This document shows, piece after piece, positions 20,921 to 22,915 of a DNA stretch of 64,000 bases (position 1 is its first letter; every line of letters starts with the position of its first letter). Under the pieces are notes generated by a model, which ran no database searches, was not told where the DNA came from, and worked only from the letters and a program-made list of their open reading frames with translations. Where the stretch lies: NCBI GenBank assembly GCA_900553125.1, contig USCB01000004.1, positions 13,027-77,026 of the forward strand, written 5' to 3'. The DNA is from an uncultured Clostridium sp. (lineage in GTDB: Bacteria; Bacillota; Clostridia; TANB77; CAG-508). A program made the translations under genes and the position numbers.

Positions 20921-22915
20921 CTAATTTACCTCCTCTGTTGGTTCATATTTACTAAACCATATTCCTTCTAATCCATCCTTTTGTTTAAATGCTGAGTGTA
21001 ATTTGTATCCTTCTGGCAAGCTTTTTCCATATTTTTGTGTATCTAATGGTTTGTCATCTTTATCTACAAATATTACACTTGCTTGTCCACTTTCTATTTT
21101 ATATGCATATCTTGGTATCCATACCCAATAGCTTTCTAGCCCATTTGCCATGCATTTTACATTTGCCCATATTTTGTTTTCGTAATTATAGAAATAATAT
21201 TCTTTTCCATCTTGATTTATTTTTTGTTCTGGATTTTCGCTGTATTCTACTTCTATACTATTTTTTCCATCTTGGGTATAGTATATTAATTTGGTATCTT
21301 CTGCTTTAAAATTCTTTAAGTTTGGCGTTTTTGGTTCTGTTTGGTCTAATGGTGTTGTTTCTTTACTACTTGGTTCATATTTACTAAACCATATTCCTTT
21401 TAAGCCTTCTTTTTGCTTAAATGCTGCATGTACTGTAAATCCTTCTGGCAAGCTTTCTCCATATTTTTCTTTATCTATTGGTTTATCATTTTCATCTATT
21501 AATATAATTGTACTTTGACCTGATTCTATTTTATATGCATATCTTGGTATCCATACCCAATAACTTTCTAGTCCATTTGCTGTGCATTTTACATTTGCCC
21601 ATATTTTGCTTTCATAGTTATAGAAGTAATATTCTTTTCCTCCTTGTTTGATTTTTTGTTCTGGTTTTTCGCTGTATTCTACTTCTATACTGTTTTTTCC
21701 ATCTTGAGTATAGTATATTAATTTGGTATCTTCTGCTTTAAAATTTTTTAAGTCTGGCATTTCTGGTTCTGTTTGGTCAACTTTTACTGTTTCTTTGCTG
21801 CTTGGCTCGTATTTGCTAAACCATATTCCTTTTAAGCCTTCTTTTTGCTTGAATGCTGCATGTACTTCATATCCTTCTGGCAAGCTTTCTCCATATTTTT
21901 CTTTGTCTAATGGCTTGTCATTTATATCTACAAATATTATGCTTGCTTTTTCTTTCTTGGCTACACTTGCATCTAGTTTATATGCATATCTTGGTATCCA
22001 CACCCAATAACTTTCTAGTCCATTTGCTGTACATTCTATGTTTCCCCATATTTTTGTTCCGGTTTCTTTATAGTCTACAAATGTATATGTTTTTCCTTCT
22101 ACTGTTATTTGTTTTTTCTTTCCTTCTTCTATATATTGCTTTATGCTTACTTTGTATTGGTTCTTAAAATCTTCTGAATAATATATTACTTCTGTTTTAT
22201 AACTTAGTTTATTTAGGTCTGGCTCATATGCTATTGTTCCATCACTTGATTTGAATTCTTTTGATTCATCTTCTGCTGTTCCTATTCCTTTTGCATTTAC
22301 TCCATCTAACATTAATTTTGCATATTGTAGGCTATGGACTGTTTCTTTTCCTATTCCTGTTGGTTTTATTTTGTAACATTTGTCTGTTACTTGGTCATAT
22401 ATATATTCTTCTTCTTTTCCTCCTGCTGCTTCTTTTTTTATGTAATATATATCATTTACTAATCCTTTTAGAAACTCTTCGTCTTTCCATGTATCTTGGC
22501 ATTCTAACATGTTATTTTTCCAAATTCTTTTGGTGCTTATTGGTTCCCCATTTGCATAATTGTTTCTTGCATATAGTATTTCTGCTTTTAATGTGTTACT
22601 AAATTTTTCTATCTCTTTTTTTGATAGTTGCTTTTCTATAAATTCGCTTTCCGAACTTTTTCCTGTATATTCTTCTAATACTTTTATACTTTTTTGTGCA
22701 TTTTTATTTTCTTCTATTGCTGACATTTCTGTATAAAAATTTGCTTTTGTTGTTCTTGTTAGTATTCCATTTTGCCCTGTTAACATTGATATCGTTACTC
22801 CTGATAATATTAATAAGACTATTATTGTTACTACTAATGCTATTAATGTTATTCCTTCTCTCTTATTTACATTTTTCAACTTTTTTCTCCTTCCTTTTTG
22901 ATTTTTATATAACAA
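20921..22915 (-). CDS. large surface protein with prepilin-like N-terminal hydrophobic segment and three ~145-aa tandem repeats
   Basis: N-terminus K(R)EGITLIALVVTIIVLLILSGV (pilin-like helix but no Glu at +5); repeats containing YWVWIPRYAYK and GIWFSKYEP, DNA period ~432-447 bp (anchors at 21111, 21543, 21990); likely true start is the TTG at ~22876 preceded by GGAAGGAG. Confidence 0.65.
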   Translation of the reverse strand: MLYKNQKGRRKKLKNVNKREGITLIALVVTIIVLLILSGVTISMLTGQNGILTRTTKANFYTEMSAIEENKNAQKSIKVLEEYTGKSSESEFIEKQLSKKEIEKFSNTLKAEILYARNNYANGEPISTKRIWKNNMLECQDTWKDEEFLKGLVNDIYYIKKEAAGGKEEEYIYDQVTDKCYKIKPTGIGKETVHSLQYAKLMLDGVNAKGIGTAEDESKEFKSSDGTIAYEPDLNKLSYKTEVIYYSEDFKNQYKVSIKQYIEEGKKKQITVEGKTYTFVDYKETGTKIWGNIECTANGLESYWVWIPRYAYKLDASVAKKEKASIIFVDINDKPLDKEKYGESLPEGYEVHAAFKQKEGLKGIWFSKYEPSSKETVKVDQTEPEMPDLKNFKAEDTKLIYYTQDGKNSIEVEYSEKPEQKIKQGGKEYYFYNYESKIWANVKCTANGLESYWVWIPRYAYKIESGQSTIILIDENDKPIDKEKYGESLPEGFTVHAAFKQKEGLKGIWFSKYEPSSKETTPLDQTEPKTPNLKNFKAEDTKLIYYTQDGKNSIEVEYSENPEQKINQDGKEYYFYNYENKIWANVKCMANGLESYWVWIPRYAYKIESGQASVIFVDKDDKPLDTQKYGKSLPEGYKLHSAFKQKDGLEGIWFSKYEPTEEVN

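Follow-up and report, generated by a model that had tools for sequence, protein, structure and literature searches.

A triplicated repeat protein with a pilin-like N-terminus encoded next to a retroelement-diversified protein in uncultured gut Clostridia

The contig USCB01000004.1 of an uncultured Clostridium sp. (GenBank assembly GCA_900553125.1) encodes a long protein that combines a pilin-like N-terminal helix with three tandem repeats, which raises the question what such a protein is made for. We analysed positions 13,027 to 77,026 of the forward strand of this contig, a stretch of 64,000 nucleotides with a G+C content of 28% that is called the window below. All coordinates are those of the window, and all features lie on its minus strand unless another strand or another contig is given; related loci and contigs carry L numbers and database proteins P numbers. 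The gene in question (20921..22879) encodes a protein of 652 amino acids (aa), referred to here as the scaffold protein. A first reading made from the letters of this DNA (the sequence-only reading) dealt with the repeats and the N-terminus of this protein, but missed that its significance lies in the neighbouring gene and in the context of a diversity-generating retroelement (DGR). With high confidence we take the 652-aa protein for a conserved partner that accompanies a DGR variable protein. Probably it serves, in an uncultured gut bacterium of the Clostridia, as the anchor or scaffold of a surface receptor that is made of two proteins and diversified by the DGR. To our knowledge, bacteria, archaea and their viruses have no natural system of targeted protein hypermutation other than DGRs.

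The neighbouring gene (20256..20920) starts with an ATG directly after the scaffold stop codon (20921-20923). Its product of about 220 aa carries a Sec-type signal peptide, and by inspection no lipobox, LPXTG motif or second hydrophobic stretch could be found in it. As an open reading frame the small gene covers 20267..20920. Its frame is broken inside the variable repeat (VR) described below, and the conserved end, which reads ...DVTFRPVIWN (...ATGGSFGDVTFRPVIWN in the window protein) followed by the stop codon, is readable in the alternate frame and ends at 20256. The homologues of the small protein terminate in ...VTFRPVIWN as well, and the 5-9 residues preceding this end vary among otherwise near-identical sequences. 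The column entropy of the family accordingly reaches 3.0-3.4 bits exactly in the VR and is at most 2.0 bits elsewhere. The VR occupies 20294..20345, within the last approximately 30 codons of the small gene, and a template repeat (TR, 20006..20058), which reads ...GGT AAT AAC AAC AAC AAC GCTACGGGCGGTTCG, follows 236 bp downstream of it. The two repeats differ at nine of the ten template adenines and additionally by one T-to-G change and one deletion of a single nucleotide. Such an adenine-focused difference is the signature of a DGR. The TR contains five AAY codons, which by simple arithmetic allows for about 4^10 variants at the DNA level.

Directly after the TR a structured spacer RNA is found (19824..19975), which matches the RT-14 RNA of Rfam (RF02921) with 61.1 bits at a gathering score of 48.1. 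The motifs of this series were defined by their nearness to reverse transcriptase (RT) genes, and one of them, RT-10, sits between TR and RT in phage BPP-1 (Weinberg et al., PMC5737381). The TR of the window is homologous to the TRs of complete DGR cassettes in related loci, and the region comprising TR and RT-14 aligns to the spacer between TR and avd in these cassettes. The consensus fold of RT-14 and the cassette spacers shows compensatory changes in 15 of 27 predicted pairs. At the Rfam gathering score RT-14 was not detected in the related loci, and the homology was established by the alignment instead. Judged by its sequence and its position, RT-14 is the spacer RNA of a DGR. A search of metagenomes for the exact TR-spacer junction of the window gave no match, a gapped pattern of the same junction identified five metagenome loci, and in the literature searched nothing was found on RT-14 or on the N-terminal peptide of the scaffold protein.

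Alongside the TR/VR pair and the structured spacer RNA, neither an RT nor an Avd protein is encoded in the 64-kb window, as judged by a YxDD scan, by hidden Markov models derived from the complete cassettes and by tblastn with E-values up to 10. Therefore, both proteins either act in trans or have been lost. According to a survey TRs are usually located directly beside the RT; action in trans of avd, TR and RT as well as remote target genes are documented too (PMC5758913). What a full cassette of this family looks like can be seen in L010, L031, L039, L041 and the metagenome contigs L087-L089, each of which contains, in this order, the scaffold protein, the small protein with its VR, TR, spacer, Avd and RT. 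The proteins of L010 and L039 are assigned to Pfam bAvd with E-values of 6e-26 and 4e-27 and to RVT_1 with 2e-19 and 3e-22, and those of L010 are labelled 'Avd protein of DGR' and 'Reverse transcriptase' in PHROGs. By eye, the neighbours of the L010 cassette are open reading frames for EF-Tu-like and PlsX-like housekeeping proteins, and the element therefore looks cellular and not phage-borne. Adenine-specific TR/VR pairs were found in seven further loci, with the mismatches falling at adenines in 9/9, 11/12, 10/10, 10/10, 14/14, 13/13 and 17/18 cases. No TR was found within 10 kb of the small gene in L001-L006.

Four conspecific contigs, whose flanks are 98-99% identical, contain four different VRs: GGGGTGGCGGCCCCTAC in the window (out of frame, -1), GGTCATAACTACCACGGCGTC in L086 (in frame), GCTAACTACGGCGGCAAC in L091 (in frame) and GGTAATACCACACAGCACCTACGGC in L085 (out of frame). 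The small protein has thus diversified between strains. Over 5.2 kb (window 15102-20311) L091 matches the window at 99% identity and shows the same RT-less layout, which is therefore not an assembly accident. In L086 (98% identical) the TR likewise follows the small gene, and in L085 (98% identical) unrelated genes begin right after its stop codon.

These contigs also bear on the explanation that the module is a decaying remnant in this genome, with avd and RT lost, the VR frameshifted and the scaffold protein left with no working partner. It would fit that no Avd or RT is found in 64 kb even at lenient thresholds, that the VR is out of frame in the window as well as in the conspecific L085, that L085 is entirely devoid of a TR and that 5 of 120 database homologues are frameshifted at the same place of the VR. 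However, the scaffold open reading frame, the TR, the spacer RNA, the promoter and the leader are all intact in the window, and the frameshift lies within a run of five G, so that it could also be a sequencing error. L091, moreover, combines the same RT-less layout with a different VR that is in frame. Since window and L091 both lack the RT and their VRs nevertheless differ, we infer that the element is more likely served by an RT in trans than dead, and we consider the remnant explanation quite improbable. The length of the template itself varies, with four AAC codons in the window and five in L091, and slippage of the (AAC)n template may give rise to frequent frameshifted VR alleles.

As a side observation, position 20257 approximately marks a strain-level breakpoint. 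On the window side of it lie TR, spacer and, directly downstream of the spacer RNA, the genes of a family-2 glycosyltransferase (409 aa) and a PMT_2-like membrane glycosyltransferase (500 aa), both within 16847-19667. L085 has in its place (L085 4862-9636) genes for NUDIX, radical-SAM and ribosomal S21 proteins, which are absent from the window.

The scaffold gene and the small gene form an operon pair. In 37 of the 39 multi-unit genes that could be assessed the small gene is located directly downstream, and the pairing persists in different surroundings: the small proteins of the window and of L001 are 70% identical, and the neighbouring genes of the two loci are different. This has to be set against the explanation that the scaffold protein is an independent adhesin or wall-associated protein, whose repeats bind a host or microbial ligand and never the small protein, and which merely shares an operon with a DGR target. 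The repeat unit is predicted with high confidence to fold on its own, and in large proteins it is found beside Ig-like and fibronectin-type domains, both of which would suit an adhesin. On the other hand, the synteny is near-perfect across proteins that are only 35-70% identical, the two genes abut each other, the small protein itself lacks an anchor, and the unit and the lectin-like part are fused 1:1 in one chain, and this repeatedly. We therefore judge an independent adhesin to be unlikely.

The fused proteins just mentioned are the numerous paralogues of 545-600 aa which begin with an N-terminus of the scaffold type, contain one unit and continue with a domain of about 330 aa. The motifs HxMKNxEWGAVAYL, GVYDMxGGxWE and RGG mark this domain, the end of which is formed by FRPV. 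Three of these single-chain paralogues carry TR/VR pairs, with Avd and RT encoded on the opposite strand. The link of the small protein to the fold of C-type lectins (CLec) was made via these paralogues, because direct searches of PDB and Pfam gave nothing. The profile of the small protein aligns with the part that follows the unit in the single-chain paralogues, from W-x-N-I to FRPV, with an hhalign probability of 96.9% and an E-value of 2e-10. The single-chain profile in turn matches the DGR variable protein TaqVP (PDB 5VF4) with an E-value of 1.4e-3 in three collinear pieces, one of which pairs the 'HPAF...GIWVAKYE' stretch of the unit with residues 58-84 of TaqVP. TaqVP's FGE-type CLec domain begins with residue 112 (TaqVP paper). 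P0324, in which unit, KFE, HxMxNxEW and FRP recur in this order as four regular modules, is assigned to the Pfam family FGE-sulfatase with 43.9 bits at a cut-off of 23.3. From the single-chain fusions, the hhalign result, the TaqVP match and P0324 it follows that the unit is the pre-lectin module of this FGE-type branch of variable proteins. As far as can be told from sequence comparison, the two-gene system is the split form of the single-chain protein, in which the anchored chain bears three copies of the pre-lectin module.

A metagenomic fragment of 291 aa (P0332) joins the WVWIPRFAYK of a unit directly to the ESGTVRMQI of the small protein. Either a deletion in frame has fused the variable protein to the last unit, or the assembly of this fragment is chimeric.

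The three units of the scaffold protein comprise 144 aa each, close to the period of about 145 aa estimated in the sequence-only reading, and are encoded at 21803..22234 (unit 1, aa 216-359), 21371..21802 (unit 2, aa 360-503) and 20939..21370 (unit 3, aa 504-647). The first of them is the positional orthologue of unit 1 in other proteins. The anchor CTTGGTATCCA, by which the tandem arrangement had been recognised, is located exactly at 21111, 21543 and 21990, with 0.02 matches expected by chance. Tandem Repeats Finder reports a period of 432, 2.6 copies and 85% matches with a score of 1578. To call the units near-identical was an overstatement: units 2 and 3 are 81% identical at the protein and 87% at the DNA level, and for units 1 and 2 the values are 64% (of the aligned positions) and 80%. 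Within a protein, units 2 and 3 are 58-97% identical, and between distant orthologues only about 45-65%. They have therefore been repeatedly homogenised or re-duplicated, and the concerted evolution proposed earlier finds support for these two units. The suspected change in copy number can be observed directly, since P0381 (504 aa) and P0017 (647 aa), two members of one 90% cluster with 98% identity, are set apart by exactly one unit. Three units are present in 92, two in 20 and four in 9 of the 120 listed homologues together with the window protein.

The earlier reading that the unit is not a recognisable known domain was borne out. With the scaffold protein no family was detected at threshold in Pfam and NCBIfam, and no known domain was obtained for the unit from PHROGs. 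The unit profile found no match among the PDB sequences with E-values up to 10. In an AlphaFold2 model of the scaffold protein (mean predicted local distance difference test score, pLDDT, of 82) the N-terminus forms a long helix, after which come a stalk of helical and alpha/beta structure and three repeat domains rich in beta structure; unit 2 modelled alone (aa 360-515) reached a pLDDT of 88 and a predicted template modelling score of 0.77. Foldseek found nothing significant with the full model, and with the unit model of pLDDT 88 the best E-values were 1.2 in PDB and 0.28 in BFVD. An assignment to known adhesin or Ig-like repeat domains (Big_*, fn3, SdrD_B and others) was rejected, as neither the sequence nor the fold matched. 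The idea that the units are former or additional VRs was also dismissed: a self-comparison of the window revealed one TR/VR pair only, and conspecific contigs agree in their units to about 98%.

The repeat domain is undescribed, yet common. Among 1.84 billion representative proteins its profile identifies 2264 clusters with 1-10 copies per protein, and the large proteins, in which 1-10 units stand beside Ig-like and fibronectin-type domains, have the typical appearance of adhesins. The scaffold family as a whole numbers 5186 proteins with E-values of 1e-3 or below among 8000 candidates scored in a single search. It occurs in genomes of uncultured gut Clostridia that were assembled from samples of humans, rabbits, chickens and ruminants and frequently contain several paralogues, and single genomes encode at least 7-8 proteins that share the scaffold-type N-terminus.

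This N-terminus depends on the choice of the start codon. The open reading frame 20921..22915 proposed for the gene exists, and its first in-frame TTG would yield the 664 aa given in the sequence-only reading. That reading had also suggested a TTG at about 22876 as the real start, which was right with respect to the codon and 3 nt off with respect to the position. The TTG at 22879 is the better start, as it lies 7 nt after GGAAGGAG and yields 652 aa, and the database protein P0001, which is 99% identical to the scaffold protein, is also 652 aa long. We consider it the likely start. The protein then begins with MKNVNKREG, followed by ITLIALVVTIIVLLILSGVTI, and the first 34 aa (22778..22879) form a pilin-like hydrophobic helix, which spans aa 7-34 in the model, with Gly at -1, Ile at +1 and Ala at +5.

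The question whether this N-terminus makes the scaffold protein a type IV pilin was addressed with 144 family members. The short basic leader, the Gly at -1 and the hydrophobic stretch of about 20 residues are present in the window protein (MKNVNKREG before ITLIALVVTIIVLLILSGV), and throughout the family, where the leader has a median length of 8 aa, position -1 is occupied by Gly in 116 (81%) and by Ala in 23 sequences (16%) and position +1 by Ile in 95%. At position +5 Ala is found in 111 sequences (77%), Ser in 17, Val in 10 and other residues in the remainder; Glu never occurs (0/144), so that the earlier description of the N-terminus as pilin-like but devoid of Glu+5 holds for the whole family. 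With the Pfam model N_methyl (PF07963) the scaffold protein scores 11.4 bits at a cut-off of 21.2, and the best of its relatives (19.8 bits) stays below the cut-off as well. NCBIfam contributes no pilin model at E-values up to 1. Weak matches of the family profile to pilins of PDB were obtained, namely to geopilin (E-value 0.03) and to PilE1 and MshA (0.2-0.3). A pilus ATPase, a platform protein or a prepilin peptidase was not found among 16 other window genes that were scanned, a subset of the open reading frames of the window which, where assignable, belong to housekeeping, glycosyltransferase, glycogen metabolism and restriction-modification functions. In L001-L006 no pilus genes adjoin the scaffold homologue; a Peptidase_A24 gene is found 8 kb from it in L001.

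An explanation that differs from the one favoured here only in the type of the anchor would make the scaffold protein a modular minor pilin or pseudopilin of the type IV class, which is cut after the Gly at -1 by a prepilin peptidase and carries the repeats as an adhesive payload at the tip of a pilus or competence pseudopilus. It is favoured by the prevalence of Gly at -1, after which come ITLIAL and a hydrophobic stretch of about 20 residues, by the matches of several family members to N_methyl (E-values 5.6e-4 to 0.25, all below threshold), by the weak resemblance to solved pilins and by the peptidase gene of L001. Tip subunits such as GspK also do without Glu+5. Against it stand the complete lack of Glu+5 in the family, the profile scores that all remain under the cut-offs, the lack of a pilin model in NCBIfam, the lack of pilus genes among the scanned window genes and beside the gene in L001-L006, and the number of at least 7-8 such N-termini per genome, which would be unusual for minor pilins. 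Membership in the type IV pilin class is thus not supported by these comparisons, and a minor pilin is in our view an improbable identity of the protein. The N-terminus may be a plain signal anchor or a Glu-less tip-type pilin that is processed by a peptidase.

If the two-protein receptor is accepted, the following picture emerges. The pilin-like helix would anchor the scaffold protein in the membrane with the remainder outside, and the stalk (approximately aa 40-215) would bear the three 144-aa, predominantly beta-structured modules predicted by the model. The lectin part, split off as the next gene and equipped with its own Sec signal peptide but no anchor, would be secreted and dock non-covalently on the modules, by which the interface of the fused protein would be rebuilt and up to three heads could be held by one scaffold. 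Reverse transcription of the TR RNA, together with the spacer RNA RT-14, would introduce errors specifically at adenines, and the product would be copied into the VR. The docking of the lectin subunit on the repeat modules, which is suggested by the gene fusions, is proposed with moderate confidence.

Several points weigh against this picture. No solved structure was found with the profile of the small protein in a PDB profile search and no family in Pfam, so its presumed CLec fold is reached through a chain of profile matches, and within the match to TaqVP the HPAF piece that connects the unit is not significant when taken alone. As the unit folds confidently by itself, it need not bind anything. 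The three units face a single small gene, a mismatch in number that bears on the stoichiometry. Finally, the variable protein of the window is frameshifted and Avd and RT are missing from the window; the system may be switched off or decaying in this genome.

The region upstream of the scaffold gene may offer a way of switching. In the order of transcription it comprises a promoter, a small open reading frame, a hairpin, the ribosome-binding site and the scaffold gene. The putative operon promoter (23124..23152; TTGACA, a spacing of 17 nt and TATAAT) matches the consensus in 12 of 12 positions and is the best site in the region scanned. The small open reading frame (23015..23095, 26 codons) encodes MKITKAESLAAVHTHTHTHTHKYFTK and contains (CA)14 at 23032-23059. 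Between it and the scaffold gene, at approximately 22908..22991, a long AU-rich hairpin followed by a U run resembles a terminator; a terminator scan based on G+C did not call this hairpin. The RNA of 22880-23125 folds with a z-score of -3.67 in comparison to shuffled sequences. Small open reading frames rich in His and Thr codons with (CA)7-11, some of them similar in sequence, also precede the homologues in L009 (4800-4870), L025 (9795-9870), L039 (9800-9870) and L049 (11426-11495), although these homologues are only 35-40% identical, and by eye terminator-like hairpins follow the small open reading frame in L009 and L025 too. Two conspecific copies of the leader contain 14 CA repeats each. 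In this AT-rich genome the repeat is invariably written with the codons CAC and ACA, which suggests that the dinucleotide repeat itself is conserved. From its sequence the leader could possibly be a phase switch that works by slipped-strand mispairing, or a His/Thr attenuator. That all parts come together, with a multivalent and exchangeable two-chain receptor, a TR and spacer RNA kept at the target, RT and Avd located elsewhere and a (CA)n leader acting as on/off switch, is a tentative and rather doubtful proposition.

Apart from this operon, the window contains two tRNA genes (33195-33268 on the plus strand and 33806-33877 on the minus strand) and an L10 ribosomal protein leader (63265-63387), which together with the nearby genes for Era, RecO, MurB and glycogen metabolism mark an ordinary chromosomal region. 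A gene with a SIR2_2 domain stands beside genes of a type I restriction-modification system (HsdS-like and HsdM-like) at 44761-48957, which is possibly a defence island.

The human gut has the highest known density of DGRs, and the targets of the cellular DGRs of Bacillota are poorly understood (bioRxiv 10.1101/2024.11.15.621889). The locus described here points to a large family in Clostridia in which a variable lectin is either fused to or split from a protein with a pilin-like anchor. The uncharacterised repeat domain thereby gains a concrete and testable role as partner of a variable domain, and the orphan Rfam motif RT-14 is placed at the spacer position of a DGR. The locus is also a natural case of a TR that is separated from its RT, with VRs that still differ between near-identical strains. 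If the docking is true, the two proteins would offer a compact scaffold of natural origin on which diversified binders can be displayed.

In the literature searched, a layout in two pieces, anchor and variable protein, was not found described for DGRs. The known systems that come nearest are the FGE-type CLec variable proteins, which include TaqVP, TvpA of Treponema denticola and Mtd of phage BPP-1. In these as in the present system the gene carries the VR at its 3' end, which closes with a last strand (...TFRPV...) that is invariant, the changes occur at template adenines derived from AAY codons, and Avd and RT take part, here in the related cassettes. TvpA and TaqVP are monomers with a single domain and Mtd is a trimeric phage fibre protein (TaqVP paper). 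Unlike in all three, the pre-CLec module and the CLec domain reside here on two polypeptides, the pre-CLec module is triplicated on a protein with a predicted membrane anchor, and the variable part is secreted as a free protein of about 190 aa.

The cellular variable proteins of Bacillota mostly resemble phage receptor-binding proteins, and in Bacteroides DGR-diversified tip adhesins of Type V pili are encoded directly downstream of the genes for anchor and stalk (bioRxiv 10.1101/2024.11.15.621889). The latter system is the closest functional parallel, as it is likewise a cellular DGR of gut bacteria with the variable gene directly after the anchor genes, a gene order which implies that a diversified binding head is displayed on a surface structure. 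However, the Type V pili depend on Sec and the lipoprotein pathway, whereas the protein described here belongs to Clostridia of the Gram-positive type and begins with a pilin-like helix; the phyla are different, and the anchors of the two systems show no sequence relationship.

With the modular type IV pilins and the GspK-type pseudopilins the scaffold protein has in common the short basic leader, the Gly at -1, the hydrophobic helix of about 20 residues and a large extracellular payload. It differs from them in that its family has no Glu+5, that the profile scores stay below the cut-offs, that no linked pilus genes were found among the window genes scanned and that many paralogues occur per genome. 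In cellulosome scaffoldins, cohesin repeats dock secreted subunits that bear a dockerin. Although there is no homology to these proteins, the docking proposed here being deduced from gene fusion and the partner being one hypervariable lectin instead of a set of enzymes, they provide an analogy for a clostridial surface protein whose tandem modules hold separately secreted subunits.

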